A stretch of DNA of 64,000 bases, taken from a virus. A program made the translations under genes and the position numbers. The notes beneath the pieces are model-generated. The model saw nothing but the letters and a program-made list of their open reading frames with translations, was not told the DNA's origin and did no database searches. The stretch covers positions 9,769 to 73,768 of the IMG/VR virus record IMGVR_UViG_3300025917_000002; one strand, written 5' to 3'. Positions within the stretch are counted from its first letter, which is position 1, and each line of letters opens with the position of its first letter. Of this stretch, positions 7,379-53,084 are shown piece by piece.

Positions 7379-7379
7379 C

Positions 7380-7991: not shown

Positions 7992-8262
7992 TTCTAGTGC
8001 TCTCCTTTTGCAAAAGTTGATTGATAGATACTATCGTTTCAAAACGGAAGGTCATCGTCTTTAACTACGTTCCCGATGACCTCGACCGGCTCCAATGGAA
8101 CCGCGAACTCCGTTTGGTTGTAGTAGAACTCCTTAACCTCAGCAACCCGCTCTCTAAGGGTAACTATCCTACCCCACGGGATGGCGTTGGGGTCTGAGGT
8201 CAACACGCTATGTACTTCATACAACAAGGACCAAAGCTCAGTATCCGTAGGTCGTTCTGTAA

Positions 8263-27302: not shown

Positions 27303-29714
27303 ATGAGCCTAGCAGAACGCTTCATCCCGTCCGCGATTCGCGGAATGTTCGGCGGAAACGGCGGCCAGCCGCCCGAAGAAATCGCCGAGCAGGAGCCACC
27401 GCCGATTTCCACCCAACTTTCGATCAACAAGGACGAGCTGGAGCGCATCCGGCTCCAAATCCACTCAGACTACGACCTCGCGCTCGACGACCACAACATT
27501 CGGCTCCGCCGATGCGCCCGCCAAGAGGAACTTTGGCGCAAAAAGCCCGGAATGCCCGGCGGCGAAACCGGCGAATCGAACTTCCGCGTTCCCATCTGCA
27601 CCGCCCTCATCTTCGCCAAGCACGCCCGCGAAATCGACGCGATGTTCGGTCCAAAAGCGAGCGTTTCGGCCACCCCGCGCGGCCCTTCGGACACTAAAGC
27701 GGCGAAAAAGGTGTCGATCGCGATGTCCTGGCAGGTCTTGGACAACATGAAGTGCATAAAACCCGTTGCTCTTTGGGCGCTCCGCCGCCTCAAGCACGGG
27801 CGTTCCTTCGCTTTCGTCCCCTGGGAGTCGAAATTCTACACCAAGTACGAAAATGGCGAGCGAAAACGGGTCAAATACCAATCATCTCCGATGATTTACC
27901 CCCTCGGAAACGACGAAATCATGCTCCCAGCCGACGTAGAAGGCTGTGACACCGTTCAGGACGCCCGTTGGGTGATGAGGCGCTACAAAACGACTCCTAC
28001 GGAGATGCTCCAGCGCGAATCCGTGCCCGGAGAGCCCCAAAACGAGGAAGGCGACTGGTACCAAGGGATTTCCGAGAACTTCGAGAAGATCGTTCGGCTC
28101 GGTCGGGACGGCATCAACCGCTACCAGATGTCCAACGAAGATCAATCGAAGGTTGTCGCGGATCGCGATGAGGGCGTCATGCGTGATATGAGCAGCTCCG
28201 TCCGCGAGTACGTCATTGTGGAGGAGCATTATATAAGGTGGAGGATGGAAGTGGGCGCGCCACCCGAGGAGGAAACCGATGAAGATACCGAACTTGAAAT
28301 TTCAGCCGACACTCCCGCCGATGCAGCGCAACCCGCAGGTACTTTTAAGGATGAGCAAGGCGTCGTCAGAGAAATGCTCGAAACTGATCTTGTCGTTCGT
28401 TACGTCCGAGATTTGCACCTCATCGTCGGAATCCAGCGGCTCGCCGAACTCTACCCGGATACGCCGAACAAGCGGCCCATCTTAGAGATGTCGCTGCTGA
28501 ACGACGGACAATACTGGTGCCAAGGCTTGATCGAACTGACCGAGGAGATCGAGCAGGAAATGTCCATCCTCGCGAATAAGCTGATCGAAGCCGTCGGCAT
28601 GTCCATTGCTCCGCCGATCTTCGTCGAACCTACCGTCGGCGAGAACTTCATGAACCGGAAGTATGGCCCCTACGACCTCATCCCGACCGCCAACGCCGCC
28701 GGTGTCCAGCAGATGAAGATCACGCCGCAGATTGAGTCCTTTGCGCAGCTCTGGCTCCTGTTCCAGCAAATCTACGAGCAAGTCACAGGCATCTCACAGG
28801 GGGTTTTTGGCCGGGCGATGGACCAGCCCAACGCCCCCCGCACGCTCGGGGGCCAGCGGCTCGTAGCCGCCGCAGGGGACGTTCGGCTCGCGCTCGACAT
28901 GCGAATGCTCGCCGAGGACCTCACGCGCGTCCTTGAGTGGATTTGGGACCTCTGGCGTATGATGGGCTCCGAGCAGGAGTTCTACCGCGTCGCGGAGGGC
29001 GATGCCCCGCGCGGCACCTTCAACACCGGCGAGGTCAACGAGGGCTTCGCTGCGCTCTCCGCCAAGGAGCGCGAAGCCAGCTACGACTTCTCCTTCCAGT
29101 TCGCAGATGACATGCAGCTCCGCGAAGGTAAGAAGCAGGAAATCCTGCTCGTGATGCAGGTCCTCTCGACCCTTCCGATCATCGCCACGAACCCCGCCGC
29201 TCAGTACCGCCTAGCTGTCGAGTTCTGCGAGGTCTTCAACATCGATTTCACGGAGATCATGGACGAGCCCCCACCGCTCTTTTCGCCGCGTCTGCCGTCG
29301 CTAGAGTGGACCCTTCTGCTCCAAGGTGAAGACATCAACATCCACCCCGCCGACGACGACCAAACCCACATCGACGACCACGAGAACCGCGTCACAGCGA
29401 TGTCGCTCGCTCCCGCCGAAGACCAGGACTGGGACGCGATCCTCGCGATGCGCGAACACGTCATCCAGCACCAACAGCAGATGCTTGCCAAACAGCAAGC
29501 ACAGGAAGTTATGGCCGGGCTGCAAGCGATGCTCGGCGTAGCGCAGGGGGGCGTGCCCGGCCTTGGCGGAGGCGGTGGCCTGCCCCCCGGCAATCCCAAC
29601 GCCCAAGGTATGCAAGGCGCGGGTCAGGCCGGACTCGGCGCGCTCGGCGGCGGCCCCACCATCGGTGGCGGCATGGGCGGGGGGATGGAGGGGATGGGGC
29701 CGGTCGGCGGGTAG
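27303..29714 (+). CDS. portal protein (podovirus/P22-like)
   Basis: About 800 aa, after terL; helical core, EQVTGIS..G..PRT motif, Gln/Gly-rich C-terminal tail. Confidence 0.85.
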   Translation: MSLAERFIPSAIRGMFGGNGGQPPEEIAEQEPPPISTQLSINKDELERIRLQIHSDYDLALDDHNIRLRRCARQEELWRKKPGMPGGETGESNFRVPICTALIFAKHAREIDAMFGPKASVSATPRGPSDTKAAKKVSIAMSWQVLDNMKCIKPVALWALRRLKHGRSFAFVPWESKFYTKYENGERKRVKYQSSPMIYPLGNDEIMLPADVEGCDTVQDARWVMRRYKTTPTEMLQRESVPGEPQNEEGDWYQGISENFEKIVRLGRDGINRYQMSNEDQSKVVADRDEGVMRDMSSSVREYVIVEEHYIRWRMEVGAPPEEETDEDTELEISADTPADAAQPAGTFKDEQGVVREMLETDLVVRYVRDLHLIVGIQRLAELYPDTPNKRPILEMSLLNDGQYWCQGLIELTEEIEQEMSILANKLIEAVGMSIAPPIFVEPTVGENFMNRKYGPYDLIPTANAAGVQQMKITPQIESFAQLWLLFQQIYEQVTGISQGVFGRAMDQPNAPRTLGGQRLVAAAGDVRLALDMRMLAEDLTRVLEWIWDLWRMMGSEQEFYRVAEGDAPRGTFNTGEVNEGFAALSAKEREASYDFSFQFADDMQLREGKKQEILLVMQVLSTLPIIATNPAAQYRLAVEFCEVFNIDFTEIMDEPPPLFSPRLPSLEWTLLLQGEDINIHPADDDQTHIDDHENRVTAMSLAPAEDQDWDAILAMREHVIQHQQQMLAKQQAQEVMAGLQAMLGVAQGGVPGLGGGGGLPPGNPNAQGMQGAGQAGLGALGGGPTIGGGMGGGMEGMGPVGG

Positions 29715-29930: not shown

Positions 29931-31658
29931 AAGGCAGCGTCCCCTGTCCTCAATGCGGCAACCCAGAAACCGACTTGCTCAGCACGACCAACGACTACCG
30001 CAACTACTGCCCGGCTTGCGACGTGCGATTCAGCGATAAGGGGGAGTTTCCCCTAGAGAAAGTGGAGGCAACACCGATGAAAACCCTCGTCCTCAAAGTC
30101 GAACTTCGGGGTGAGAACATCAACGTCGATCTGGACAGCCCGATCATCGTGGGTGTCAAGGCGCTGTTGGAAGCAGCGATTCGTACAAAACGTACCGAGG
30201 AAACCTTGATTGATCTCGCACAGTGGAGTGAATGGGCAACAGGCGTTACCGCCGTCGAAGTCCGCTTCCAGTTCAGTGAGGAGTCCATAGATTGATGAGC
30301 ACCCCCGACGAACGCGGCGTCAACGAGGCCCTCAAGAGCTTCCAAAACTTTTGCCTCGACCAAATCGTCGCGGCTTGGTTCGCCGACGCGCCCGACCCCG
30401 CCGCCCTCACCGACGAAATGCTGGACAAGTGGGAGCGGATGATGCGTAGTCGCTACGGGCGGGCAGCACGGCAACAGTCAGAGGCAACTGGTATCATCAC
30501 GACCGGCGGCACGTGGCTGGATGATGTACTTGAGGAGAGCAAGAAGCGGATCAGGGCGTCCTTGGGTAGGGCGATTAAGGATGCCACACTGACGGCGCAA
30601 GCGGAACGCGAGAAGGCTAATTGATGACCATCGACGTAGTATCCCAATCCAAAGACTACCTCGAACTCTCCGACATCGAGTTCCACCCCCTCGTCCGCGC
30701 CAAGTTCCGCGAGGTCCTCGAAACGGAGGCTCGCAACCTCGAACAAGTTGCCCCTGACCGCCTGCTCAAGTTCCAGGGCCGCATCGAGATGCTGCGGTGG
30801 ATTCTTGACGCGATGCTCCCGAAGATTTTGGCCGAACAGCGCGAACGGGCGAAGGCTGCGGAGGCGAGCGAGTGAGCACTGAATACTGTCCAGTAGGACG
30901 TATCGACTGGCAGGAACTTATGGAGATGGTGCCCCCACCACCTCTACGATGGGATAGCGAGCAAGCTGTTACTCGGCGGTTATACGATGCGGAAACTAAC
31001 CGATATATTTGGGTCGCCGACACAAAACGGGGTGCGGTGTTTGAGTTATTCGGCTCGAACCAAGATGAGGACGGAGACGTTTCTATCAAGCGCATCAGCC
31101 AGTGGCTTGATACGGAGTTAGTAGAGCAATGACCCCAACCATCATCGTCCCTTCTTTCACGTGTCGCCACTGCCGCCGCCCCATCTCTCCGGCTTTCATC
31201 GCGTCGCTCGTCGGCACGAACCCTGCGAACGGTTACTTATGTGAGACGTGTATTGTGCGGGAGCAGGAAAACATGCACCGCCTCCAAGCCTCGCTCAACG
31301 AAGTCACGCTCGACATCGACGGGGCCGCCCCGCCCTGCGCGATCTGCGACACGATCAAGGGAGACGAGCGGGTGCTTGAAGACTACGAAGGCGCGAAGGC
31401 GTTCATGTGCAAGCCGTGCGCGGATGCTTACTTGGTTAGTAATCGAGATAAGCTGAAGGGGACGAAGCTCGAATGGGACTTGAAGCTAAAGTAGAACCGA
31501 CTGACCCTGATGTTTGCCCCAAGTGTCGAGGCGACTTGGGCTGGACCTTACGCGGCTCAATGGACGGCAACCCCTATCGCGGCAACGTCGCAACCTGCCG
31601 TGATTGTGATTACTTTTACGAGCCTAGTGAGGAGTGGCTGCGGATACATAAGCGATGA
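29927..31658 (+). CDS. run of six small hypothetical ORFs, several with CxxC
   Basis: 29927..30295, 30292..30624, 30621..30875, 30872..31132, 31129..31494, 31473..31658, all overlap-coupled. Confidence 0.6.
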
Positions 31659-33337
31659 CCAACGGCCTCGTCAGCATCATAATCCCCTCCCGCAGCGAGC
31701 AATTCCTCGTCCCCACGGTCAACGATTTGTTCGCCAAAGCGGTTGGTCCCATCGAAGTAATAGTGTGCTTGGATGGTGGGTCATGGCCTGATCCACCCCT
31801 ACCGTTCGACCGTGGAAGCCTCACTGTTATCCGCCATTCAGAGTCCCTCGGCACGCGCGCCGCGATCAACGCCTGCGTCGAAGCCGCCAGTGGCGAGTTC
31901 ATCATGAAGTCCGACGCTCATTGCTTGTACGCGGAAGGGTTCGATGAGGCCCTCAAAGCCTCTTGCTTCTCCAACCACGTCGTCGTCCCCCGCCGCAAGC
32001 GCCTTGACGCGGAGAACTGGCGCGTCGAGGAAACCAACCGGCCCGACTGCGACTACGAATACATCCAGTGGCACCCCACCGACTTCGGCGGTCGCGGCCA
32101 CAACATCGCCCGTTGGGAGGAGCGCAACCGGGATGAGTCGCTCAAGTCGATCCCGATCGACGACCTGATGGCCTTCCAGGCGAGCTGCTATTTCATGCGC
32201 CGAGACTACTGGAATTTCCTAGAACTGATGGACGAGTCCGCCTACGGCAAAACCCAAAACGAAGGAGAGGAGATCGCGCTCAAATGTTGGCTCAGCGCCG
32301 GGCGGGTAGTTATCAACAAGCTCACGTGGTTTGCCCACTTGTGGAAGGGCTCCCGCTACCCCCGCGACTACAAGTTCGAGCCGTCCGACCTCGCCCAAGG
32401 CGCGAGCGGCGTTCAGCGGTGGCTCACCGACTCCGCGTGGCCCAAGCAAACGCTCCCGTTCTCGTGGCTGATCGACAAGTTTAACCCACCCGGTTGGCCC
32501 CCCGATTGGCGCGCGCAGGTAATCAATGACCAGTCTCGGCCAGTACCAATATCGCACGGAAGCCGGAGCCCTGATGCCCCCGGCTCTCCGCTACCACAAC
32601 TGGATCAACCAAGCCCTGCACCGGGGCCACTGCCCGCTGAACGCGACGCTCCTAGTGCTGGGGTCGTTCTACCAAAGGATATACGGTCTATGAGCGATAC
32701 GCTTGCCCGCATCCTCGGCAAGTTCAACCTTGACCCGAGGGCTGATTACAGCAAGGTCACGATGCCCCTTACGTTGCGGATGAACCGCACGGAACTTGCC
32801 GCGTTGTTCGCCGAACTCGGTTTCACCGTGGGGGCGGAGATCGGCACGGCGGCGGGAGATTATGCAGAGACGCTCTGTAAAGCGAACCCCGATCTGCTGC
32901 TCCTACATTGTGTGGACAAGTGGCAACCTTACCACGGCTACACCGACCACACCCATAAGACGACGTTGGACGGATTTTACAATGAGGCTAAAGCGCGGCT
33001 CGCACCTTATCCCGTGTTTATGCACCGTGAGTGGTCGTTGGATGCGGCGAAGGAATTTGAGGACGGTTCTCTTGACTTTGTCTACATCGACGCGAATCAT
33101 AGGTACGAGTACGTCGTCGCCGACATCGCCGCGTGGCTCCCGAAGGTCCGCTCGGGTGGAGTCCTCGCGGGCCACGACTTCAACCAGTCCCGCCAGTCCC
33201 GCAAGAAGCTCTTTGGCGTCGTCGAGGCCGTCACCGGCTGGTGCTCCGCCTACAACGTAGCCCCTTGGTTCGTCTGCAAGGGCGAATGGGTTTCGGTCGG
33301 AGATAAGACGCCGAGTTGGTTCTGGGTGAAGCCATGA
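31655..33337 (+). CDS. GT-A glycosyltransferase (ppGalNAc-T/GT27-like) fused to class I SAM methyltransferase
   Basis: VSIIIP, MKSDAHC, EEIALKCWLSAG..WFAHLWK; Pro-rich linker; GAEIGT, DFVYIDANH.YE.V..DI..W.PKVRSGGVLAGHDF. Confidence 0.85.
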   Translation: MTNGLVSIIIPSRSEQFLVPTVNDLFAKAVGPIEVIVCLDGGSWPDPPLPFDRGSLTVIRHSESLGTRAAINACVEAASGEFIMKSDAHCLYAEGFDEALKASCFSNHVVVPRRKRLDAENWRVEETNRPDCDYEYIQWHPTDFGGRGHNIARWEERNRDESLKSIPIDDLMAFQASCYFMRRDYWNFLELMDESAYGKTQNEGEEIALKCWLSAGRVVINKLTWFAHLWKGSRYPRDYKFEPSDLAQGASGVQRWLTDSAWPKQTLPFSWLIDKFNPPGWPPDWRAQVINDQSRPVPISHGSRSPDAPGSPLPQLDQPSPAPGPLPAERDAPSAGVVLPKDIRSMSDTLARILGKFNLDPRADYSKVTMPLTLRMNRTELAALFAELGFTVGAEIGTAAGDYAETLCKANPDLLLLHCVDKWQPYHGYTDHTHKTTLDGFYNEAKARLAPYPVFMHREWSLDAAKEFEDGSLDFVYIDANHRYEYVVADIAAWLPKVRSGGVLAGHDFNQSRQSRKKLFGVVEAVTGWCSAYNVAPWFVCKGEWVSVGDKTPSWFWVKP

Positions 33338-33499: not shown

Positions 33500-35368
33500 A
33501 TGCGTGACCTCTCCATCCTCATACCTTCCCGTCAGGAACCATTTTTGCGGCACACAATCGAGGACATCCTCGCCCGCATCGAAGCGGACACGGAGATCAT
33601 CGCGGTCTGCGACGGGGCCTTGCCGGTAGAGCCGATAGATGACCATCCGCGTGTGAAGTTGGTGCTGCTCCCGAAGTCCATCGGTCAGCGTGCCGCCACG
33701 AACCTCGCGGCTCGAATGTCCAAGGCGAAGTTCATAATGAAGCTCGACGCGCACTGTGCGCTTGACCAAGGCTTCGACGTTAAGTTGATGGCAGATTGCG
33801 AATACGATTGGACGGTTGTGGGAAAAATGTATAACCTCCACGTCTTTGATTGGGCCTGCAAGGTCTGCGGCCACCGCCGCTACATGGGTCCACTCCCGAC
33901 CAAGTGCCTGAACGATGCTTGCCCCGGCACCGAGTTTGAGCAGATCATCGTTTGGAAGCCCCGGCTCCACCGCCTAACCAGCGCGTATCGGTTCGACGCT
34001 AACCTACATTTCCAATATTTTAGAGAGTACACCAAACGGCTCTTTAACGCAGGCAACCACGGCCTGCTCACCGATACGATGTCTCTGCTCGGAGCCTGCT
34101 GGTTTCTCCATCGCGATCGCTATTGGGAACTCGGTGGCCTCGATGAGCGGCACACATCCTGGGGCCAGATGGGCACCGAGATCGCCTGTGCCACTTGGCT
34201 CACGGGCGGTCGCCTCGTCTGCAACCAGAAGACGTGGTTTTCACACATGTTCAGGACGCAGTCGGGGTTTTCGTTCCCATACGAAATGGACGGCAAGGGT
34301 CAGGCTTACTCGCGGGTCCACTCGCGCTGGCTCTGGGTAGAGGGGAACTACCCGAAGATGCTTCGCCCGTTGTCGTCGCTTGTGGAGCAATTCGCCCCCG
34401 TCCCCGACTGGACAGATGAGGCGCTTGAGAACCTGAAGAAGATCGAACGTAAGAAATGGGGAGGTCGAAATGGACCACTTGTACCATTTTCTGGCGACGC
34501 TATCACTAATGGTCAGCCTCGGAGCGTTCTTAGCTCTGACCGCGCAAATAGTAGTAGGGGTAATCAGGCTCATCAAACCGCTGCGATAATCTACTACACC
34601 GACTGCCTGCTCGCCGATCCCATCTACGAAGCCTGCCAGCGCCAGCTCGCCCGCGCCTGTGGCACGATCCCTATCACGAGCGTCTCCCTCGGTAAAGGCA
34701 TAGACTTCGGCGAGAACATCATCATCCATCGGCAGCGGGGGGCGAAGACGCTCTTTCTCCAGCTTATCGCAGGGCTGGAGGCGAGCACCGCCGACTTTGT
34801 GTTCTTCTGTGAGCACGACGTGCTCTACGATAAGAGTTGCTTCGCATTTACACCACCGCGCGACGACGTTTTCTACTACAACGTCTCCCTCGTCCGCGTG
34901 AGCGCGGCTTCCGGTAAAGCCGTGGGCTATCAAGCGAAGCAGCTCTCGGGGCTGTGCGCGAACCGGCTGCTCCTGCTTGAGCACTACTACCGGCGTTTAG
35001 CGCGCATGGCCCTAACCTGTCGCCAAGTCGCGGGCGAAGGCCGCGAACTCCCCCCGAAGTGGCCCGACGGCCACTCCCGCTTCACTGGCTGGGAGCCCGG
35101 CGCAAACTCGCGCGCGGGGCACGAGGTTGATGGCTACAAGAGCGACGTTTGGCAATCAGCCGTACCCTACATCGACATTCGCGACCACGGCACGAACTTT
35201 AGTCGAACGCGCTGGAAGCGTTCCCTATTCTGGGACAAATCCACCTGTGAAGGCTGGCACGAGTTCGCCCCCGGCGAGCTAATTCCCGGCTGGCCGAGCG
35301 CCCCTGTTGGGTGCTTCAGCGAGTTCCTCGCCGACCTATCCAGCTATGTAGCTAACGAAAGTCCTTGA
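33500..35368 (+). CDS. double glycosyltransferase (ppGalNAc-T-like domain + second GT-A domain)
   Basis: LSILIP, MKLDAHC, YWELGGLDE..SWGQMGTEI...WLTGG...WFSHMFR; C-terminal IIYYTD...FVFFCEHDVLY. Confidence 0.85.
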   Translation: MRDLSILIPSRQEPFLRHTIEDILARIEADTEIIAVCDGALPVEPIDDHPRVKLVLLPKSIGQRAATNLAARMSKAKFIMKLDAHCALDQGFDVKLMADCEYDWTVVGKMYNLHVFDWACKVCGHRRYMGPLPTKCLNDACPGTEFEQIIVWKPRLHRLTSAYRFDANLHFQYFREYTKRLFNAGNHGLLTDTMSLLGACWFLHRDRYWELGGLDERHTSWGQMGTEIACATWLTGGRLVCNQKTWFSHMFRTQSGFSFPYEMDGKGQAYSRVHSRWLWVEGNYPKMLRPLSSLVEQFAPVPDWTDEALENLKKIERKKWGGRNGPLVPFSGDAITNGQPRSVLSSDRANSSRGNQAHQTAAIIYYTDCLLADPIYEACQRQLARACGTIPITSVSLGKGIDFGENIIIHRQRGAKTLFLQLIAGLEASTADFVFFCEHDVLYDKSCFAFTPPRDDVFYYNVSLVRVSAASGKAVGYQAKQLSGLCANRLLLLEHYYRRLARMALTCRQVAGEGRELPPKWPDGHSRFTGWEPGANSRAGHEVDGYKSDVWQSAVPYIDIRDHGTNFSRTRWKRSLFWDKSTCEGWHEFAPGELIPGWPSAPVGCFSEFLADLSSYVANESP

Positions 35369-39448: not shown

Positions 39449-39550
39449 GGTCTGAAGCCTCCTTTCAGGCTGTGTCTTGAGCCCGCGATGTTCAACGCAT
39501 CGACGGGCTCGCTTATTGTACCAGACCCAGTGTTCTAAAGGAACAATGTC

Positions 39551-39898
39551 ATGCCAATCGCAAACATAGATTTCGAGTTCTGGCACGCAGACGACTCCAC
39601 CGGCTCGCACAGATCAAAGGTGCGAGTCGAGGTGATCGCAGGCGTTTGCCGCGTCTACGTCCAGAAGACTGAGGGGCGGGGGCCGTTTCCGGTGTTCCTT
39701 TACGGCACGTTAACGATGGCGGAATCACCGTCGGCGAGCGCATCAGTTTCGGCCAGCCCGAGCGTTAGCTCATCGGCGTCACCATCGGCTAGCCCAAGTG
39801 TGTCGGCATCGGCATCACCGTCAACCTCGGCTTCAGCTTCGCCGTCTACGTCAGCTTCGGCGTCATCGTCGGTATCGGCTTCAACCAGCCCAAGCTAG
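39551..39898 (+). CDS. small putative virion protein with 57-aa (Ser-X)n tail
   Basis: Short beta-rich N-domain followed by [13 protein letters not shown]... Confidence 0.8.
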   Translation: MPIANIDFEFWHADDSTGSHRSKVRVEVIAGVCRVYVQKTEGRGPFPVFLYGTLTMAESPSASASVSASPSVSSSASPSASPSVSASASPSTSASASPSTSASASSSVSASTSPS

Positions 39899-40518: not shown

Positions 40519-41439
40519 ATGGCAGAAACCCTTGGGGCGTTCAGACTGCGAGTATCGAAAACCCCGGTTGGCGCGTCGGTTGATCCCGACGTTCTCAACG
40601 GTGAGATAAATGATTGTGTGGAGAGAATCTGCCGTGCCTTCCCGTGGACCCGCCTCAAGCAGCAATCGGTCTTGCAGACCGTGGCGGAATACACCACGGG
40701 TACAGTTGACATTGCTCTCGGCGCGACCTCGGGCACGGGTACCGGAACCACGTTCACAACTGCAATGACCGGGCGTTTCATCCGCCTTAGCAATCTCCTC
40801 CCCCCTTACATCTTCACGTTCGTCTCTACCACATCGTTCACTATCGACCGTCCCTTCGAGGGGGCTACGCTGGACGACGCGGGATTCAAAATCTACCAGT
40901 CGATCTTCGAGCTACCGGCGACGCTGGAATCCATCAGCAGCCTTCGCAACCTGACCTTCGGCTACGACCTGAACCCCGAAACCCGCGAGTGGCTCGACCG
41001 CAACGCAGCCGCGCGCTACGCCTACGGCCAACCGGCGATGTACGTGCCAGCCGAGGACAGCGCAGCGGGGCTACAACAAATCGAACTCTACCCCGCGCCA
41101 ATCGTCTCGCAGGGCCTTGGGATGGACTGGCGAACGCAACCGCCCCTGTTCGATCTTGAGAACCTCGACACGGACGACACCTTCCCCGACTGGTTCTCGA
41201 TGCCAGCGGTGATGGCGGGGGTTCTGGCCTCGCTCTACCGGCTACAGGGTGAACAGGCCCTTGCGCAGATGGAAGAAGCTCGGTTCCTGATGCTCGTTCG
41301 CGAGATGCAAAGCGAAGACGCGCGGCGGATGCCGCCTCAAACGATGCGCCAAGCAGATCGCTACGTGATGCACCGGGTTCGGCGCGCGAACCACGGGGAC
41401 GATTACGACATAACGAATTGGTCCGACGCAGGGAGCTAA
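40519..41439 (+). CDS. head-tail adaptor / neck ring protein
   Basis: IND..ERI....PW, FELP, GQPAMY, IELYPAP pattern with an inserted beta domain. Confidence 0.65.
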   Translation: MAETLGAFRLRVSKTPVGASVDPDVLNGEINDCVERICRAFPWTRLKQQSVLQTVAEYTTGTVDIALGATSGTGTGTTFTTAMTGRFIRLSNLLPPYIFTFVSTTSFTIDRPFEGATLDDAGFKIYQSIFELPATLESISSLRNLTFGYDLNPETREWLDRNAAARYAYGQPAMYVPAEDSAAGLQQIELYPAPIVSQGLGMDWRTQPPLFDLENLDTDDTFPDWFSMPAVMAGVLASLYRLQGEQALAQMEEARFLMLVREMQSEDARRMPPQTMRQADRYVMHRVRRANHGDDYDITNWSDAGS

Positions 41440-41858: not shown

Positions 41859-42371
41859 ATGGCAAGTGGCGATACCCTAGCGATCCTCTATCCCCAACAC
41901 AACAACCCGCCCGCCGCCGCTTACGCGACTCGTGACACGCGCAACGGTCATCCGGTTCTGAACTTCGACGGCGCTACAGACGAGGAAGCGGTCTTCTCGT
42001 CCATCTTGCCCCGCCGCTACGCCGGGGGCGGCCTGACCGTCAACCTCTGGGTCGGATGCGCCTCGGCAACGACCGGCACAATGCGCTGGCAGGCAGACAT
42101 CGAGCGGGCTGGCATCGCCGATGGCAGCGGCTTAGATATTGACAGCGACGGCTTCACCGGCACGTTCGAGTCCAACGGCGTGTCCGCCCCAGCCGCAACG
42201 GGCCAGTTCGCGGTCTGTGCCATTACCATCACCAGCGGCGCGCAGATGGACTCGCTGGCGGTGGGCGAGCCTTTTCGACTGAAGATCAGGCGTGACGCGG
42301 ATGGGACGAGTGGCACGGACAATATCACCACCGACTGCCAATTGTTGGCAATAGAAATTCAGGAGACATAA
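41859..42371 (+). CDS. beta-sandwich virion protein
   Basis: [17 protein letters not shown]; precedes the LamG gene. Confidence 0.65.
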
Positions 42372-42375: not shown

Positions 42376-44466
42376 GTGGCGCGTTTATTTGACGGCACCA
42401 ATGACTCGCTTCAAGCCGCGTCTGTTGACCTCTCAGCGGTCGATAAGCTCACGCTGTCCCTATGGCTCTGGTGGGATGCCTTCGCCAACAACGATGACCT
42501 TGCCTTAGAGTTCACCGCCGATGCAGGCGGTAACGTCGGTTCCTTTTATCTCGATCCGAACCACTCAACCAGCGGTGCTTTCCAAGTGCTCATCGGCCCA
42601 ACCGGCTCCATAACTCAAGGAACCTTTACCCGTCCCAGCGCAGCAGCTTGGCATCACTACGTCATCCAGCTCGACAAGTCAACCAATCCTGATTCGATTG
42701 CAGTCTGGGTTGACGGCGTTTCTCAGACCTTTACCTACGGTAGCCAAGTTGACCAAGGCAGCAACTTCGCCAATGCGACGCTCAACTTCATGAGCCGGAA
42801 CAACGCTTCGCTGTTCGGCGCGGGGCGACAGGCTGAGGTGGCGATCTGGCCGGGGGTACTACTGGACCAAGCTGAGATCACCGCGCTCGCGCAGGGGTAT
42901 ACGCCGGACCAAATCCGCCCAACTGCCAAGCCTTACTATTGGCCGCTGCACGGGCGTAACTCGCCTGAGAACGAGTTGTTCTTCGGAGCTAGCGCAACGG
43001 TCAACGGCGCGACCCAGACCGACCATCCGCGCATCATTGAGCCACGGGCATTGGAGTTCCAGACCGAGCCGATTGGTACGAGCCCGAGCCCATCGGTTAG
43101 CCCGAGCACGTCGCCGAGTGCGTCCCCTTCGGTGTCCGCCTCAGCATCACCGTCTGTCTCGCCCAGCACCTCTGAGAGCGTGTCACCGTCTACATCCGAA
43201 TCAGGGAGCGCGTCGCCAAGCGTCAGTCCAAGCCCGTCTCCTTCTACCAGCCCATCGGCGTCGCCCTCTGCCAGCGCGTCCGCTTCGACGAGTACGTCCG
43301 AGTCTGCCTCACCTAGCGTTAGCCCAAGCGCAAGCGGAAGCGAGTCCCCGTCCACGAGCGCCAGCGCGACCGGCAGCGTCAGCCCGAGTACCTCGCCCTC
43401 GGCCTCGGCATCGGGTAGCACGTCGGCCAGTACCTCAGCTAGCGCATCGTCCAGCACATCAAGCTCGCGCTCTGCCTCGGCATCGCCATCCCATTCGGTT
43501 AGCGCGAGCCCTTCGGCGTCGGTGAGCGAGAGCCCCTCAGTCTCAGCGTCGCGCTCCGCGTCGGCCTCGCCTTCCACATCCGTCAGTTCGTCGCCGTCTG
43601 CAAGCGCGAGCCTCAGCGGTTCGGCCTCCGCAAGCCCTTCGGCCTCAACATCCGTCTCGTCCTCAGCTTCGCGCTCACCATCGGTCAGCGAGTCCGGCAG
43701 TGCCAGCGCCTCAGTCAGCGCATCATCCGGCGAAGAAGAAGTCCCCTGTGACCTGACCCTCGCGAACCTACGCTTCCGCGTTCTTGACATGCTTGACGAC
43801 GTGCCCGGTCGCTACTGGACCCCGGCTGAGATCGACCACGCAATCAACGTTGCGCAGCGGCTCTGGTGCCTTTTGACCCTGTGCCTCGAAAAGACCGTAG
43901 TTTATACCCTCTCAACGGACGGTCGCGCCTTCTATCTTATCAGCGACCAGATAGACGACTTCATCGTGCCCCTCCGCGTGAGCCACACGGGCGGTGCTCG
44001 GCTCAAGTCGGACACCATCCATAACCTCGATCTCCGTAGCAGCACTTGGCGCGTCACGCCGGGTCCGCCCACGCGCTACGCGCAGTACGGCTTCGACCTT
44101 CTGGCTATCACGCCGCAACCCACGGTCGCTTCGACCTTGACTATTACCTATGCAGCGGAGCCGGTTGAACTCGTGGCGGACGCCGACGTACCGGACATCC
44201 AGCCGGAACAGCAGGTTCACCTTGAGCAGTTCGCGTTCTGGTTCGCGAGGTTGAAGGAGGGCGGAGCGGAACTACAGAATGCAGTGGCGAACCTCAATAC
44301 GTTCCTCGATGCGGCGACCAAGTATGCGTCGTTCACGAGGGCACGGTCACGCGCTCAGCTCTATGACAACATCCCTTTCGACGTGGCATCATTCGATCGC
44401 GGTCGTTTCGAGATCAAACTGAAGAACCAGCCCCGAATGGAAGCGAGGAAAACCAGTGGTACTTAG
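42376..44466 (+). CDS. LamG/ConA-like domain + 216-aa (Ser-X)n stalk + adaptor-ring-like domain
   Basis: FDGTND, LTLSLW, WHHYV, VWVDG, G..AEVAIW...L...EI; Ser tract 43081-43728; [28 protein letters not shown]. Confidence 0.8.
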
Positions 44467-45085
44467 CGTCGCAACCCTCATCACTCAGCTCTACCCGCAG
44501 CTCCACGGCAGCAGTGAGGCGGACCTAGTTTTCACTGATGACGATGACATGGTTCGCCTGTTCTCGGACGCGATCAAGAACCTCGCTCAACGGTTCGGCG
44601 TGTTCGTCCTGCGCCACATCAACCGCTCGCTCGTCCAGGGGCAGCTTTACTATGACGCGCCCCCTCGCCACCTCTCCACGCTCCACGTCGCGATCCTCGA
44701 AACGGGTAAGCCGCTTGCTGCCAGTTCCACCAAGGAACAGGAGCTTCGCTCGACGGCGTATGAGACGACGCAAGCAACCGCCGCCAAGCCAATCCGCTGG
44801 TGGATCGAAGACAAGGCTGGCGTCAACCGGGTAGGGATCGTGCCCCTGCCGGGGGCGGATGACTCGGGGAACCATTGGGATATGGTTTATCATGCTTACT
44901 CTTGCAACGTACTAGAGGGGATCGAGACGAACCACACTTGGGGTGATTATCTCTCGCACGTAGTTATGGCCGATCTGTGGACACCGGAGTCCGACTTCTC
45001 CATCCCCGAGAGCGCCAAAGGCTACCGAGCGTTAGCCAATCTGTACGAAGCGGTCGCTGAGAAGCTGTGGAACAAAGCTCAGTAG
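44456..45085 (+). CDS. adaptor/neck ring paralog
   Basis: [22 protein letters not shown]. Confidence 0.6.
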
Positions 45086-45097: not shown

Positions 45098-48000
45098 ATG
45101 CCGTATCAGAAAAGCGTCCAACGAGTGCTCGCCGGTTCCACGAACCTCCGCGCCCGCGCCACGGAAATCCCCGGTGACGATAACCAGAAGTCCGTCAACA
45201 TCGCCTTCGACCAAGCGGGCGGCCTCCGCTCGCGCAAGGGCCACGATCTCATCTGCACCGCCAGCGGTTCCGTCAGCCAGATGCTCCGCGCGATGGGTTC
45301 CCGCTGGCAGGCCACCAAGGAAGCCTATATCACCGGCTTCAAGAAGTACGTCTGGAAGATGGGCGCGGGTGAGGTAGATAAGGCTTGTCAGACGATCATC
45401 AGCACAACGGGGCCGCGCAAGAGCGACGGGACGAATGATTGGCGCTGGATTCCGGTTGCGCCCACCGACGCTCCCGTCATCGAAGCCGCCGAAGAAGTCC
45501 TCACGGTTGTCGATGAGTTCACGGGGGGCTGGTCCAAGGATACGGATATAACGGTTGATGAGGAGGGCAACCGGACTGATGACGACGGGAACCTGCTGAA
45601 CGAGGACGGCAACCCGGTTGACGCGGACGGCAACTTGCTCTCGGGCTTTGATGCCTTGGGATATGACTACGACTCGCATGGGCTGCGCGTAAAGGGCGGG
45701 ACCAACAAGGTAGTTTCCTTCACCAAATCCGTTGAACTCGACCTGTCCGACGGGTTCGACCTGAACGACCTGTTCCGCGTGCGCCTGCGAGCCAAGAAGT
45801 GGTCAAGCATCGTCGGCGTCAGCTTCGACGTGGACGTAAACGATGGCTCTTTCCAGAAGGACTACTATAAGGTTCGGATGCCGCTCAAGGAGATTCTGAC
45901 CGCCAAGAAAGAGACGGTCACGTTCTATATTCGCAAGCGGCTGCTGGAGGTTGGGGACGCAGCCAAGAACAAGAACCGCTACGGCTCGTTTGAGCGCATC
46001 GGCTCGACCACGGATAAGGACTGGAGATCGGTCGTAGCTCTCCGCGTGAAGGTGGAGTTCTCCATCCAGACCAAGTTCTGGTTTTCGAATTGGGTGATGA
46101 TCGGCGACGCCGACAATACGCTCGAAGGTGACGACTTCCAGGTCTGCTACACCTACGATACCGAAGACGGCCACGAGTCGAACCCCTCGCCTTGGAGCGA
46201 CCCGATCGTTGTCAATCACGTTGCGATTAAGGTCACGGACATGGTGACGAGCGGTGACGAACAGGTCATCGGCCAGAACATCTACCTGCGTGGGGGCACC
46301 CTCGCGCTGCCCTACCGGGTCAACGGAGCCAAGCTCGGCGAGGACGGCCAACCCACGGAAACCGAGCCGATCACCGGGGCTGAATACACCATCACGGCCA
46401 ACGCCAACGAGCTTTCCGATCTCGACATCGTTCTGGAAGACGACCATGATGACCCACCGGATGCGACGGGCCTTGCTGACGCTCCGTTTTACGGTCGCCT
46501 GCTCGCCTTTAAGGATGCCCGCTTCTACTGGTCGCACCAAAACAAGCCCTTCGCTTTCGCTAATCCCGATGGCCCCGACGGTGACTGGGACGAGATCGAC
46601 GAGAACGCGGGAATCATCAAGCGGATGGTCGTGCGGTTCCAGCAGACCCGGCTCTACTGCGAGAACGCGATCCTGGTTCTCGAAGGCGACCCGGCGGACG
46701 CGCTGGCCGTCATCCATCCATCCGGCGTCGAGATGGGCACGCCCTCGCGCTTCGGCGTCTGCAAGGCCGTCGGGGGCGTTGACGTGGCTTATCTCGGTGG
46801 CGGCATCTACCTCGTGGACGACAGCAGCGTCCAGAAGATTTCCGAAGGGGTCGAGCCAATCTTCCAAGGGCTCAGCACCAACCTGTGGGACGGCACGGTC
46901 GCCTCGCCAATCGGCGACCCGACCACCGTTGCTGTCGGTTACGAGGACGGTATTATCTACGTCAGCTATGACAACGGGATGCTGGCGATGGACTTGCTGC
47001 GCCGCCGCTGGTTCCAGGACTCGCGCCGGTTCACCTGCTTCCAGGCTGAGGGCGAAGTTGGCCTACTCGGCGGCCAGTCTAGCGGTAAGGTTCTCCACCT
47101 GAACACCGGCAACACCGATGAGGGGGCCGCGTTCCCGATTGACTTTCTGAGCAAAGCCTACGACTGCGGTATCAGCGATAACGAGAAGCGGTGGGAGGAC
47201 ATCACCATCTTCCATGATACCGCCAACCAGGACTTGACCGTCAGTATCTACCCGTTTGAAACCGCCGCCGTTCAGAGCGTGGTCATTAATAGCGGCTTGC
47301 GGACCCGCACGGTCATCCAACTCAACGATGGGAATGGTATCCGTTCGCGGAACCTCGCGGTTCGCATCACGGGCGACGTGACGAACCCAATCTTCATCGA
47401 CGCGATTGACATCAACTATTACCCCGAAGCCCGCGAGGCGAAGTCCTATGACACAGCGGTCAGCGACGCCGGAACGCCGAAGGTTAAGCTGATCCGCGAG
47501 GTCCAATGTGACCTTGAGAATGATGGTCCCGTTACGGTCACGGTCGAAGGCGACGTGCCGGGTTTTGCTCTCGGCATCACCCGAGAGTCGCACACGCTCA
47601 CGGCTAATCCGTTTCGGCACACCGAGCCCGTCGTGATGACCTCGCCGAGCCTCATCTACGGTCACGATTTCCGCGTGGTCGCAAGCGCCGACAGCGGGCA
47701 CTTCCATATGTTCGGTGTGCGCGCGCTGGTCCAGTTCATCGGGACGTATCTGCACGGCACGAAGGGCGAGTACTACCTCAGCGACCCGATGGACTTTGGC
47801 TCCGAGCGGGTCAAGCTGGTTAAGGAGATTGAGATCATCTACGCTACGCTCGGGACGGTCGAGGTAACCATCTATACCGATCTGCCGGGAAACGCCGTCG
47901 TAGCGCGCGGTGTTACGTTCCTGCCCGCGACGCCTACCGCAGCGGTTGTCGGCGGTGAGCAGAGCATTAAGATTCCGCTTGTTGGAACGATCAAGGGGCG

Positions 48001-48178
48001 GTTGCTTCAGCTCAAGCTGGAGCCTTCGACGGACTGCCGAGTCGAAGCAATCCGGTTCTGGATGAAGATGATTGGAGCCCCAAACGCGACGCCGTGGCAG
48101 TGGTTTGACTTGCCGCTTGACCGGACCCAAGATGCGATCTGGGTGCCTCTAGCCTTTGGTGAAGATCAGGTAGCGTAG
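45098..48178 (+). CDS. tail nozzle / packaged-DNA stabilisation protein (P22 gp10 / T7 gp12-like)
   Basis: 1026 aa beta-rich; N.AFDQAGGLRSRKG, ESNPS, GRLL.F, FYWS, SKAYD.G...KRW; position after adaptors. Confidence 0.7.
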   Translation: MPYQKSVQRVLAGSTNLRARATEIPGDDNQKSVNIAFDQAGGLRSRKGHDLICTASGSVSQMLRAMGSRWQATKEAYITGFKKYVWKMGAGEVDKACQTIISTTGPRKSDGTNDWRWIPVAPTDAPVIEAAEEVLTVVDEFTGGWSKDTDITVDEEGNRTDDDGNLLNEDGNPVDADGNLLSGFDALGYDYDSHGLRVKGGTNKVVSFTKSVELDLSDGFDLNDLFRVRLRAKKWSSIVGVSFDVDVNDGSFQKDYYKVRMPLKEILTAKKETVTFYIRKRLLEVGDAAKNKNRYGSFERIGSTTDKDWRSVVALRVKVEFSIQTKFWFSNWVMIGDADNTLEGDDFQVCYTYDTEDGHESNPSPWSDPIVVNHVAIKVTDMVTSGDEQVIGQNIYLRGGTLALPYRVNGAKLGEDGQPTETEPITGAEYTITANANELSDLDIVLEDDHDDPPDATGLADAPFYGRLLAFKDARFYWSHQNKPFAFANPDGPDGDWDEIDENAGIIKRMVVRFQQTRLYCENAILVLEGDPADALAVIHPSGVEMGTPSRFGVCKAVGGVDVAYLGGGIYLVDDSSVQKISEGVEPIFQGLSTNLWDGTVASPIGDPTTVAVGYEDGIIYVSYDNGMLAMDLLRRRWFQDSRRFTCFQAEGEVGLLGGQSSGKVLHLNTGNTDEGAAFPIDFLSKAYDCGISDNEKRWEDITIFHDTANQDLTVSIYPFETAAVQSVVINSGLRTRTVIQLNDGNGIRSRNLAVRITGDVTNPIFIDAIDINYYPEAREAKSYDTAVSDAGTPKVKLIREVQCDLENDGPVTVTVEGDVPGFALGITRESHTLTANPFRHTEPVVMTSPSLIYGHDFRVVASADSGHFHMFGVRALVQFIGTYLHGTKGEYYLSDPMDFGSERVKLVKEIEIIYATLGTVEVTIYTDLPGNAVVARGVTFLPATPTAAVVGGEQSIKIPLVGTIKGRLLQLKLEPSTDCRVEAIRFWMKMIGAPNATPWQWFDLPLDRTQDAIWVPLAFGEDQVA

Positions 48179-48881: not shown

Positions 48882-50732
48882 ATGTCTTGGGGAGTACCAA
48901 AACTAGGGACGTTGGTTGAAGACCCTGTGAGCGGGGGCAACTTCACCCTAATTGAGCCCGCGGGCGTGGCACAGGGTGACCTGATGATTGCCTGTATTGC
49001 CTACCGTGGTAATGCGGCGATTACGGCTCCTGCTGGCTGGTCTACCGTAGCCACGGCGCAAAACACGGGCGACACCGACGCCACAAACGGCATCGCGAGT
49101 GGCGTGATGTTCTACATCACTCGTGGCGCGTCTGCCCCTGATCTAGTTTGCACGCGGACAGCCGGGGATGTGGTTCAGGCACGGGTTATTTCTTACTCAG
49201 GATATTCGGGTGTATACGATACTGGCACGTCTCGCACGCTCGCTGTTGCCTCGGCTACTGCTACGACGGCCTCGTTCGACACCGTTGTAGCGAACGAACT
49301 AATCGTTGCTATGGTGTCGGGCGGGGATAATTACAGCGTTTCGACGGGCTTCGATGCGACTGATCCGGCTACCGCATCAGGTACAACCGCCGACACAACG
49401 ACAGCTCCAACAGCAGGGACGTGGATACTCCGACACCTATCGGGGACGGGGACAGGTGCCGACTCAACTTTGGTGATAGGCGATGCAATTCGAGCGACGG
49501 CGGGCGCGACCGGGCAGATATCTTGTGTGCTATCAGGAATAGCCCAACAGGTGATGGTTGCGGGCGCGTTCAAGGTCAGGTATGCGACGGTTGTGTTGAA
49601 TAGCCCTGCTGATGCGTCGTCGGATCCAGATACAACGCCTACACTGGACTTTACCGGCACGGACCCAGATGGCGATTCGCTTGAGTACAACGTACGAATA
49701 AGTGGTGTAATTGATAAATATAGTGATGGCAATATAAGTGGTTACTCGTCGTTTGGCGCGACCACTGGCGATCACGGTAACGGGCAATCATTTACTGGTA
49801 CGGGTCAAACCCTACGCGCTGTCGAGTTTATGTTAGCAAACTTGTTAGGGTGTACCGGGAACGCAGTAGCAAAGATTTATGCGCATTCTGGTGCGTTTGG
49901 TACGTCATCTGTCCCCACCGGAGCAGCACTGGCTGTCTCTGATAATCTTGATGTGTCCACGCTGCCAACAGCACTAGATTATACATCTTCAACGGTTTTA
50001 ACTTTTTCGGGTGCTAATCAAATTGTTTTAACCAACGGTACGAAATATGTGGTTAGTTTGGAATATGAATCTGGCAGCACTCTTAGCATTCGATTGGGTA
50101 TAGATACTACATCTCCTGGCCATGCTGGAAATTGTATCATCAAGAATAGTTCTGATGTGTGGAACGCGCTGAACACCACCGACATCTGCTTTTCTGTGGA
50201 TTTCTTTGTACTCAATAAGTTCTCTGCGTCAGATGCGGGGTTCGTCAATCCGGATACAGGCGGAGATACCCACCCGTTTAATTCAGGCGAGAACATTCAA
50301 TATACAGTTCAGGCAGGAGACGCCTTAGCCCCTGAGACTTATTCTTGGCGGGTCCGGGCTATTGATCCTGCTGGCAGTAACAGCTATGGAGAGTGGTCAG
50401 CAACACGGAGCTTTACCATTACGGTCGTAGGAAGCACCAGCGAATCGGCTAGCCCTTCCGTCTCATCTTCCGTCTCTCCTTCCACGTCCCAATCGGTCTC
50501 GTCGTCTACCTCTGTATCCACGTCAGAGTCCGTTTCGCCGTCTGTAAGTTCGTCCATTTCACCATCGGTCAGCGAGAGCGCAAGTTCGAGCGTCAGCCCA
50601 AGCGCAAGCCCTTCAGCATCCCCATCAACCTCACCATCATCAAGCGTCAGTCCGTCGGCGGGTATACAGCCATTACCCTTAGTCTTTTCCCGACGTGGTA
50701 TGATACTGACACACAGGAGATATATCCCATGA
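48882..50732 (+). CDS. multidomain fibre/spike protein with Ig/FN3-like domain and 75-aa (Ser-X)n tail
   Basis: GDLMIA..APAGW domain, TPTLDF..DPDGDSLEY, YSWRVRAID..WS; Ser tract 50433-50657. Confidence 0.75.
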   Translation: MSWGVPKLGTLVEDPVSGGNFTLIEPAGVAQGDLMIACIAYRGNAAITAPAGWSTVATAQNTGDTDATNGIASGVMFYITRGASAPDLVCTRTAGDVVQARVISYSGYSGVYDTGTSRTLAVASATATTASFDTVVANELIVAMVSGGDNYSVSTGFDATDPATASGTTADTTTAPTAGTWILRHLSGTGTGADSTLVIGDAIRATAGATGQISCVLSGIAQQVMVAGAFKVRYATVVLNSPADASSDPDTTPTLDFTGTDPDGDSLEYNVRISGVIDKYSDGNISGYSSFGATTGDHGNGQSFTGTGQTLRAVEFMLANLLGCTGNAVAKIYAHSGAFGTSSVPTGAALAVSDNLDVSTLPTALDYTSSTVLTFSGANQIVLTNGTKYVVSLEYESGSTLSIRLGIDTTSPGHAGNCIIKNSSDVWNALNTTDICFSVDFFVLNKFSASDAGFVNPDTGGDTHPFNSGENIQYTVQAGDALAPETYSWRVRAIDPAGSNSYGEWSATRSFTITVVGSTSESASPSVSSSVSPSTSQSVSSSTSVSTSESVSPSVSSSISPSVSESASSSVSPSASPSASPSTSPSSSVSPSAGIQPLPLVFSRRGMILTHRRYIP

Positions 50733-51224: not shown

Positions 51225-53084
51225 GTGGCAACTTTCCACCGTTATAGGCTATTCAAGCTACCGCGTGCGCGGTGGATACCTAGTCGCACCCAAGTTAGCC
51301 CTTCCACGTCCGAAAGCGCCAGTCCAAGTCTTAGTGAGTCGGTATCACCTAGCGTATCGCCGTCTGTTAGTCCAAGTGTCAGCCCCAGTGTAAGCCCATC
51401 TGTTTCTGAATCACCGTCACCGTCAGTATCTCCCTCAGAGAGCGCATCGGCGAGTGAATCAACGTCACCGTCGATCTCTGAGTCCGTTTCGCCGTCCACG
51501 TCGGAATCGTCATCCATCTCGCCGTCAACGTCCGAGTCGGCTTCTCCGTCAGCGTCCCCATCTGTAAGCCCGAGCTTATCGGAAAGTGCATCACCATCGG
51601 TTAGTCCCTCTACATCTGAGTCGATCTCACCATCAGAGTCCGAAAGCTCAAGCCCGTCTCCGAGCGAGGGTGTAGAATGCGACGAGCCAAGGACCCCAAA
51701 TATCACACGAAACCACGATGTCGGACAGAATGCGTGGGCTAATACCGACAACGCCAAGGTCCCAGATTCCGCCTTCGCTACCGTTCTTTTCCCTGTTGAC
51801 GGAGCCTCACTGAGCGACTATCTCTTGGTCAGAGACTTCGGGTTTACAATCGACTCATACACCATCATCGAAGGCATAACGGTCGAGGTTCTGCGCAAAG
51901 CAGATATGCTCGGGGTTAAGAGTGCCAACATCAATCTCGTTAAGGATGCGGACCAAGCTGTTCCTGTAGTATTTTCTGGCAACGATCCGGCAGTTGGCGA
52001 CACCCTGCCTCTTATATCTAACTACAAAGCCTACGGTGGCACCTACGAACTATGGGGAATGAGCTGGACAGCGGCGGAGATTAACTCGCCCGCGTTCGGG
52101 GTGTGGATACAGCTTAATGGTATAGATACACCAGGGGCAACGGCTTCTATAGACGCTGTTCAGGTAACGGTCTGTTATCTACAGACTGCATCTGTGTCGG
52201 AGAGCGCATCGCCATCTGTATCGCCTTCGACTTCGGCGTCAACATCCGAGAGCCCAAGCCCCAGCCTGAGTGAGAGCGCAAGCCCGAGTGTTAGCCCGAG
52301 CACGAGCCCATCGGTCAGTGAATCGGCCAGCTCCTCAGTATCCGAGTCGGTGTCGGCGTCCACATCCGAGTCCGCTTCACCTAGTGTTAGCTCGTCGACT
52401 TCTCCGTCTGTATCACCGTCGGTATCGGTATCTGTGTCGGAGTCTGCGTCGCCTAGCGTTAGCTCCTCGGTGTCGCCTTCGGTGTCGGCCTCGGCTTCTG
52501 AGTCATCGTCCGAATCATCATCAGTCAGCGGCTCCGTGTCCCCATCGGTGTCACCGTCTACTAGCGAGAGTGCCAGTGCCTCAGTAAGTCCGTCGTTGTC
52601 ACCAAGCGTTTCACCATCAGCGTCCCCAAGCGTAAGTCCCAGTCCAAGTGAAAGCGCAAGTGCCAGCGTTAGCCCTAGCATCAGTCCGTCTACCAGCCCA
52701 TCGGCCAGTTCGTCAGTATCATCGTCATTATCAGAGAGCCCGTCACCATCGGCTTCACCGAGCGTAAGTCCATCTGTATCACCGTCTGCATCACCGTCTA
52801 TATCACCGTCAACATCCGAGTCCGCCTCGATCAGCGGCAGTATATCACCATCTACATCACCATCACTGTCCCCCTCACTTTCGCTTAGTGCCAGCCCATC
52901 TCCCAGCCCTAGCTTCTCCTTCGCGGTCTGCCCGGAGGTGGGGGAGGCCGTAGCTACGTTCACGGTGGTAGCATGGAGCGGCCAAACATCGGGAGCGGCC
53001 ACAGCGGTTCCAGCAGATGTTGCTTGGAGTGGTATTATCTCAGGGCAGGCAACGGCGGCGTTCACCGAGGTCCCATGCGTTTAG
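51225..53084 (+). CDS. mucin-like protein: two (Ser-X)n tracts flanking a beta domain
   Basis: Tracts 51297-51665 and 52191-52919; central DFGFTI..IEGI.V, YGG..LWG.SWT.AEINSP.FGV. Confidence 0.8.

Follow-up and report, generated by a model that had tools for sequence, protein, structure and literature searches.

Known podophage adaptors (SU10 gp11, T7 gp11, GP4, A1002 gp47; PF24175) are proteins of about 200-240 amino acids (aa), and fibres or collars are held non-covalently on their dock domain. The adaptor of SU10 is a dodecamer that sits between portal and nozzle and grips the portal with a C-terminal embracing loop. Here we describe a protein of the same family, fold and gene position, encoded by an uncultivated phage deposited as IMG/VR record IMGVR_UViG_3300025917_000002 (73,768 bp), which differs from known adaptors in that it bears its own 455-aa arm and sits between two adaptor-fold paralogs. 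At 696 aa it departs from the compact single-domain build of ~200-240 aa. The analysis covers bases 9769-73768 of the record, a stretch of 64,000 nucleotides that we call the window; coordinates are those of the window (Table 1), and genes are named by the position at which they start, apart from the gene in question, which we call the fused gene. Its product has a covalent head-tether-anchor architecture consisting of a LamG/ConA-like head, a (Ser-X)n tether and an adaptor domain. An earlier sequence-only reading of this DNA had described these elements and all of them were found where it had placed them; its interpretation is supported as far as computation reaches. On balance we favour the view that the fused protein is an adaptor-ring subunit whose N-terminal, probably glycosylated arm carries the LamG head as an accessory adhesin. 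We know of no described adaptor with built-in neck arms of its own, and the literature searched contained none with a fused N-terminal arm, which is weak evidence of novelty given the incomplete coverage of that search.

Several neck appendages resemble the fused arm in being displayed at the head-tail junction, namely the lactococcal neck passage structure, the fibritin whiskers of T4 and the collars of DEV, GP4 and A1002. Some of these structures have been seen as whiskers with terminal knots (PMC4759559). Such appendages are separate polypeptides docked on neck proteins and are often trimers, whereas the fused arm is a single-chain part of what would be a ring subunit. Trimeric tail fibres, for their part, have an N-terminal dock, a trimeric shaft and a C-terminal tip; the polarity of the fused protein is reversed and its shaft is of low complexity. 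Pfam-type scans of the fused protein matched no fibre family, which, together with the N-terminal head and C-terminal anchor, bears out the earlier claim that it is unlike trimeric tail fibres.

In layout, the fused protein is also like the serine-rich repeat (SRR) adhesins of Gram-positive bacteria (SraP, GspB, PsrP, Fap1), bacterial surface proteins in which a binding region is set off from the anchoring end by a long O-glycosylated Ser-rich stalk (PMC7661464). The binding region of SraP includes a legume-lectin-like module (PMC4047093), and SRR proteins are exported by accessory Sec and anchored by LPxTG (PMC4047093, PMC7661464). The fused protein, in contrast, starts with LamG, ends in an adaptor and has no signal peptide or LPxTG; its anchor would be a virion ring subunit, its candidate enzymes are of GT-A, GT27-like type, and no homology is implied. 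Glycosylation of SRR proteins is carried out by GtfA/GtfB-type enzymes, and the alternating Ser-X composition of the tether resembles SRR repeats. The sequence-only reading had likened the arm to eukaryotic mucin-stalk receptors. We regard the bacterial SRR adhesins as the closer analogy.

The C-terminal domain of the fused protein is a podophage adaptor by sequence, profile and fold. Pfam SU10_adaptor (PF24175) matched aa 461-650 with 49.9-53 bits (E 7e-13 to 8e-14; cut-off 27), and a search of aa 456-696 against 1.84 billion representative proteins returned 459 relatives. A profile built from 110 relatives matched the Ralstonia phage GP4 adaptor in PDB entry 8jov, which has 12 chains, with an E-value of 6e-5. 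Single-sequence PDB searches with the adaptor of the fused gene and with both flanking paralogs gave nothing significant, and the single adaptor domain used as a query in viral contigs found no related loci. The alignment-based AlphaFold2 model of the domain (pLDDT 95.4) has helices at positions 7-46 and 159-205, strands at 50-139 and a tail at 206-241; this order of two N-terminal helices, a beta domain, two further helices and a C-terminal tail agrees with the published adaptor layout of a split helix bundle, beta dock and C-terminal domain. When the model was compared with the PDB using Foldseek, ranks 1-16 were all podophage adaptors, from phages SU10, GP4, Moo19, Pa223, cyanophage A4, N4, B2, KHP30, DEV, VP1 and crAss001, with a probability of 1.00 to the adaptors of SU10, GP4, N4, DEV and crAss001 and TM values of 0.5-0.69. 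Agreement among the Pfam, profile and AlphaFold2/Foldseek results upholds the sequence-only assignment of this domain as adaptor-like. The gene also lies where an adaptor gene is expected, between the capsid and the nozzle/tail genes. Within the family the C-terminal tail is conserved, with R202, Y208, D209 and P212 nearly invariant. Given that SU10 grips its portal through the C-terminal loop and that the tail is conserved here, the N-terminus would be the free end and, by this analogy, available to bear an extension. From the same analogy we infer a position in the ring and 12 copies.

At the other end of the protein, translation starts at a GTG preceded by an AGGAGA ribosome-binding site 9-10 nt upstream, and the resulting N-terminus, MARLFDG, agrees with those of homologs. 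Laminin_G_3 (PF13385) scored 32.2 bits (E 1.4e-7; cut-off 27.6) when the N-terminal 230 aa were scanned alone and 32.8 bits in a six-frame search of the genome, in which it was the sole domain of its kind. The domain was absent from the Pfam matches listed for the protein at full length. Both scores exceed the cut-off, in keeping with the N-terminal LamG/ConA-like domain proposed earlier, and they are in the range seen for homologous heads (32-46 bits for P0029 and P0012), other heads reaching up to 69 bits. A PDB profile search with the head gave only insignificant matches, to a glucanase and a lyase (E 0.03-0.5), and no GH16-type E-x-D-x-x-E motif was seen in it by eye. Carbohydrate binding by the head is putative. 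Used at full length in tblastn against 50,697 GenBank phage records, the fused protein found no match.

Between head and anchor lies the Ser-X tract, which the sequence-only reading had put at 216 aa, exactly the length found. It contains 112 Ser residues (52%), 107 of them in a single period-2 register, and its X positions are mainly A, P, V, T, E or G. The periodicity exists at the level of the protein and is not a DNA repeat, as Ser is encoded by all six of its codons and the only arrays reported by Tandem Repeats Finder were short and weak. A second tract of the same kind is found in L013, an independent 1,485-bp metagenome contig, in which 207 aa of Ser-X run in frame into an adaptor domain 96% identical to that of the window at the protein level. 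The DNA of the L013 tract is 61% identical to that of the window tether; 102 of about 107 periodic Ser residues are retained but only 48 of the 91 X positions. That Ser is kept while the X positions and the DNA diverge indicates selection on period and length, not on sequence.

To see how the fusion is distributed, we surveyed the best 150 of the 459 adaptor-domain representatives. Stand-alone proteins of 220-270 aa make up the majority. An N-terminal arm of 97-833 aa is present in 27 of the 150, and 18 of the 21 nearest representatives belong to this armed set. At least 7 of the 27 bear a LamG head on a linker of another type, and Laminin_G_3 was Pfam-significant upstream of the adaptor domain in 6 of 10 long homologs scanned. 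The sequence-only reading had asked whether homologs lack the N-terminal fusion: most family members do, being stand-alone at ~230 aa, but in the closest clade the arm is nearly always present. The homologs lie on contigs of 12-72 kb and are called 'hypothetical' or go without a name in their sources. Three homologs (P0012, P0029, P0034) are 62-65% identical to the window protein in the head and 39-50% in the anchor, a difference that speaks for the head being a functional binding module. Their linkers are unlike Ser-X, being Pro-rich, made of Gly/Thr/Leu-type repeats or holding an extra domain. P0034 is encoded in G001, a complete relative of 71.8 kb with the same local gene order, where the same LamG head is joined to the same anchor type through a linker of non-repetitive DNA. 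An internal start that would yield a plain adaptor was considered and rejected, since the junction offers no start codon (ATG, GTG or TTG) preceded by a ribosome-binding site.

The junction itself is marked by a cysteine at the start of the adaptor domain. It is present in both the window protein and L013 and is independent of linker type. In stand-alone homologs the residue is mostly absent or variable, and their start mostly lies 1-3 residues after its position. A second Cys, at domain position 48 where helix 2 ends, is conserved in armed and stand-alone groups. The junction Cys could be a staple at the arm exit, form an inter-subunit disulfide or be a processing site; in the last case the arm would not be kept on the ring.

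Two candidate enzymes for modifying the tether are encoded between the portal and the scaffold/capsid genes. In a PDB sequence search, the product of gene 33500 had 12 matches, all of them animal ppGalNAc-transferases (best E 3.9e-6); it contains D-A-H at aa 83-85 and H-M-F-R, an instance of the H-x-F-R motif. Gene 31655 shares with it the motif D-A-H-C and has H-L-W-K, of the type H-x-F-R/K. We take the D-x-H and H-x-F-R motifs to be the metal-binding sites of GT27 enzymes. For 33500 Pfam lists GT2 only and no ricin-type lectin domain. The possibility that 31655 and 33500 are terminase and portal was rejected, as Pfam identifies them as glycosyltransferases and the terminase and portal are 21954 and 27255. 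Potential acceptors are plentiful: four virion-module proteins (39551, the fused protein, 48882 and 51225) bear six Ser-X tracts between them. The product of 39551 is possibly a glycosylated head decoration. Read-through from 39551 into 39911 was considered and rejected, since another in-frame stop comes after the TAG, as do a ribosome-binding site and an ATG.

Enzymes and tracts also occur together across genomes. No GT2 match was found in five related genomes (four at least 95% complete) by a search that recovers both genes in the window genome. The complete G001 lacks Ser-X tracts as well as homologs of both glycosyltransferases and of the other tract-bearing proteins, and no Ser-X tract was seen in the fetched stretches of the remaining relatives that lack the enzymes. 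The only other viral contig with a homolog of 33500 (43% identity) is L023 (IMGVR_UViG_3300032053_014596, 1-8683), in which the enzyme gene is followed by one gene and then by that of a 1838-aa protein with ~1,350 aa of Ser-X, with a terminase-like gene downstream. L023 shares no other gene with the window phage. On visual comparison, 48882 and the giant Ser-X protein of L023 look alike at their N-termini. Although drawn from few genomes, the two-way pattern of enzyme and tract is a clear sign that the two act together. O-glycosylation of the tether is thus a circumstantial but well backed prediction, because GT27-like enzymes are encoded in the head module and co-occur with the tracts.

Two described systems help to place this pairing. 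Animal ppGalNAc-transferases (CAZy GT27) share the D-x-H and H-x-F-R motifs with 33500, and a dense Ser tract would be the acceptor in the phage as well. In contrast to the animal mucin-type system, the tract here is Ser-X and not made of Pro/Thr/Ser-rich tandem repeats, and the setting would be the bacterial cytoplasm. In mycobacteriophages of the Che8/Corndog type, glycosyltransferase genes reportedly lie beside structural genes and are presumed to modify virion proteins (work cited in PMC11256854). In those siphophages the targets lie in capsid and tail-tube subunits, as extensions at the C-terminus, whereas the window podophage has long, strictly periodic Ser-X tracts, one of them within an adaptor arm.

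The fused gene is flanked by two further genes of adaptor fold. Upstream, 40519 scores just over the SU10_adaptor cut-off; its AlphaFold model (pLDDT 76) recovered the GP4, Pa223 and SU10 adaptors first in Foldseek (E 6.6e-6), and its beta insert resembles the N-termini of side fibres. Downstream, 44456 aligned with the adaptor family in hhalign over 182 columns (98.7% probability, E 1.8e-16), lacks the C-terminal tail of the family and gave nothing significant in a PDB profile search. The sequence-only reading had noted a likeness between the C-terminal domain and these flanking genes. It stands at the level of profile and fold but not in pairwise comparison, as BLASTP found no similarity among the three proteins. 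The order of major capsid protein (MCP), then 40519-like, adaptor, 44456-like and large tail protein genes is syntenic in 11 related viral contigs. We know of no solved podophage with three adaptor-fold paralogs in a row, and these may form stacked or mixed rings. Of the three, the fused protein comes nearest to solved adaptors, and it has retained the embracing tail; we therefore favour it as the portal-proximal ring.

Two other neighbours bear on the arm. Gene 41859, directly upstream of the fused gene, is found in G001 at the same position (64% identity) and has no homolog in relatives with stand-alone adaptors. The ESM Atlas returned only unnamed viral clusters for it (model pTM 0.91), and in one structurally similar cluster 35% of members have collagen repeats. 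In relatives with a stand-alone adaptor, a fibre-like gene of 405-484 aa lies directly downstream of it (L002:2528-3982, L004:10728-12017, L007:10855-12072). These genes have no Pfam or PHROGs match, and we regard them as the split counterpart of the fused arm.

Taken together, we propose that the C-terminal 241 aa would form a ring of 12 copies on the portal clip, as the SU10 adaptor does, and that the N-terminus would leave the ring at the invariant Cys, continuing into the 216-residue (Ser-X)n tether and then the LamG/ConA-like head. In the infected cell the two D-x-H GT2 enzymes of the phage would O-glycosylate the tether, turning it into an extended, protease-resistant bottlebrush, and up to 12 flexible lectin-like heads would crown the neck. 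By a rule-of-thumb estimate an arm would reach ~10-15 nm as a bare coil, and stiffening by glycans would extend this to tens of nm. The simplest reading is that the heads would serve as accessory adhesins, making a first, reversible and multivalent contact with polysaccharide of the host surface or matrix ahead of tail engagement. In the clade of the window phage the arm is built into the adaptor, and relatives with plain adaptors have a separate fibre gene beside the adaptor gene. We also advance, tentatively and as something we would not count on, the broader idea of a mobile phage 'mucin kit' in which GT27-like polypeptide O-glycosyltransferases and (Ser-X)n tracts have been grafted into several virion proteins, making the adaptor a crown of up to twelve glycan-stiffened, lectin-tipped arms that are locked or released at the junction Cys.

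A number of observations weigh against the accessory-adhesin reading. LamG is a fold and no proof of sugar binding, and solved lectins gave no significant match. That the N-terminus of the adaptor points outward in the ring is putative. The co-occurrence of glycosyltransferases and tracts stands on two positive and five negative genomes, and the phage itself is known from metagenomes only. With three paralogs present, the fused protein may not be the portal-proximal ring, and 40519 has a C-terminal tail that is long and basic; a mixed ring could have fewer than 12 arms. Finally, an invariant Cys at the junction could be a sign that the arm is lost by cleavage.

This last point leads to a reading in which self-cleavage or a protease removes or rearranges the arm at the junction Cys, leaving a plain mature ring with the LamG/Ser-X part released or non-covalently held. 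It draws on the Cys being invariant at the domain boundary in 27 of 27 clear N-extended homologs and on the start of stand-alone homologs 1-3 residues later. Yet there is no conserved residue before the Cys, nothing resembling an intein or Ntn catalytic motif was seen, the other conserved Cys, with which helix 2 ends, suggests a staple, and the high conservation of the head argues for lasting usefulness, all of which makes cleavage quite improbable to us. A trivial origin, by chimeric assembly across the low-complexity repeat or a mis-called open reading frame (ORF), was also considered, as low-complexity DNA can mislead assemblers and a long antisense ORF (42936-43790) overlaps the tract. However, the tether DNA is no simple repeat, the same junction occurs in L013, the head-anchor architecture recurs in many independent long contigs, and the 73.8-kb record is a closed genome bounded by terminal repeats. 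We therefore give an artefact next to no credence: the in-frame junction of L013 and the head-anchor connection through a non-repetitive linker in G001 refute an assembly join across the repeat, a risk that the sequence-only reading had itself raised.

The remaining alternatives accept the architecture and concern what the arm does. The tether might be a bare flexible spacer, with the glycosyltransferases acting on host envelope glycans or other virion proteins. Relatives do link head and anchor by Pro-rich or Gly/Thr/Leu-repeat linkers and have no such enzyme, which implies that glycosylation is not required for the arm as such. Against a bare spacer, Ser is held at every second position while the X positions and the DNA diverge; tracts and GT27-like enzymes are paired in two unrelated phages and jointly absent in five relatives, and the sole solved relatives of 33500 glycosylate polypeptide Ser/Thr. 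We judge a bare spacer unlikely, if still worth serious attention. The head could also work within the virion, either by binding the phage's own glycosylated tracts or fibres to build a collar or mesh or by holding or sensing fibres in the manner of T4 whiskers. A glycan is presumed on four virion proteins, 41859 accompanies the head and could be its partner, and the T4 fibritin whiskers are a neck-borne precedent; but the same head occurs in G001 with neither Ser-X nor glycosyltransferase, so that binding of self-glycan cannot be its general role. This we regard as improbable, and an accessory adhesin on the adaptor ring is the reading that we retain.

The genome around the fused gene is that of a podophage with ~58% G+C, and the record has 127-bp direct terminal repeats and is rated 100% complete. 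On the plus strand the structural genes run in the order terminase, portal, two glycosyltransferases, scaffold-region genes, MCP, small genes, 40519, 41449 and 41859, followed by the fused gene (42376-44466), 44456, 45098 and more tail genes. The portal, 31-33% identical to portals of relatives, is the expected partner of the adaptor ring. The tail protein 45098 is syntenic in all relatives (60% identity in G001); the ESM Atlas gave unnamed viral clusters for it, with weak named neighbours. Most neighbouring tail genes had no match in Pfam or PHROGs. Upstream of its Terminase_6N match, the terminase contains a LAGLIDADG-like domain (aa 320-370), which may be an intein or a homing-endonuclease insertion. 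A GNAT-type acyltransferase-like gene (54527-55135; PHROG E 5e-8) lies within the tail module, and its product could modify glycans or proteins. An open frame of >1,970 aa (58090-63999) is cut off where the window, and with it the linear record, ends. As to the host, P0029 used as a query against genome contigs had as its sole match an unrelated domain in a deltaproteobacterial metagenome-assembled genome, giving no host clue.

Table 1. Coordinates of the fused gene, its parts and other genes of the window.
Feature	Coordinates	Strand	Remarks
Whole fused gene: LamG head, Ser-X tether and adaptor anchor	42376..44466	+	696 aa; single open frame with both domain matches
N-terminal LamG/ConA-like head	42376..43065	+	aa 1-230; Pfam PF13385 match aa 6-167
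(Ser-X)n tether	43081..43728	+	aa 236-451, 216 aa
Junction cysteine, aa 458, first adaptor-domain residue	43747..43749	+	Cys in 27/27 clear N-extended homologs
Head-to-tail adaptor domain	43741..44466	+	aa 456-696; helix bundle, beta dock, conserved C-terminal tail
Glycosyltransferase fused to Methyltransf_24	31655..33337	+	PF00535 and PF13578
Tandem glycosyltransferase, first domain GT27-like	33500..35368	+	PF00535
115-aa protein ending in 56-aa Ser-X tail	39551..39898	+	just after capsid gene region
616-aa protein, 76-aa Ser-X tract before short C-terminal peptide	48882..50732	+	
619-aa protein, two Ser-X tracts (~124, ~244 aa) flanking globular domain	51225..53084	+	
Upstream adaptor-fold paralog	40519..41439	+	306 aa; PF24175 28.1 bits; inserted small beta domain aa ~58-124
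Downstream adaptor-fold paralog	44456..45085	+	209 aa; start overlaps fused-gene end by 11 nt
170-aa gene directly upstream of fused gene	41859..42371	+	accompanies LamG head
Tail protein, nozzle/hub-like	45098..48178	+	1026 aa; role inferred from position
Terminase large subunit	21954-24812	+	952 aa; Terminase_6N match
Portal, SU10_portal-like	27255..29714	+	PF23899 28.7 bits, just below cut-off
Major capsid protein	37853	+	
HNH/NUMOD4 homing-type endonuclease	38831-39610	-	inserted directly after major capsid gene

Adaptors have been seen as compact, passive couplers, and a clade with arms of its own of 100-830 aa, often tipped with LamG, alters the parts list of the podophage neck. Armed adaptors are a new place to seek determinants of host range, and three stacked or mixed adaptor paralogs offer a concrete target for structural biology. 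The Ser-X version ties the arm to a phage-encoded relative of animal mucin-type O-glycosyltransferases. This pairing could reveal the manner and purpose of virion glycosylation in phages and could yield a tool for dense O-glycosylation in the bacterial cytoplasm. If the broader idea of a mobile kit were true, the adaptor ring would itself be a receptor-binding organelle, and viruses of prokaryotes would be using animal-type mucin O-glycosylation chemistry.

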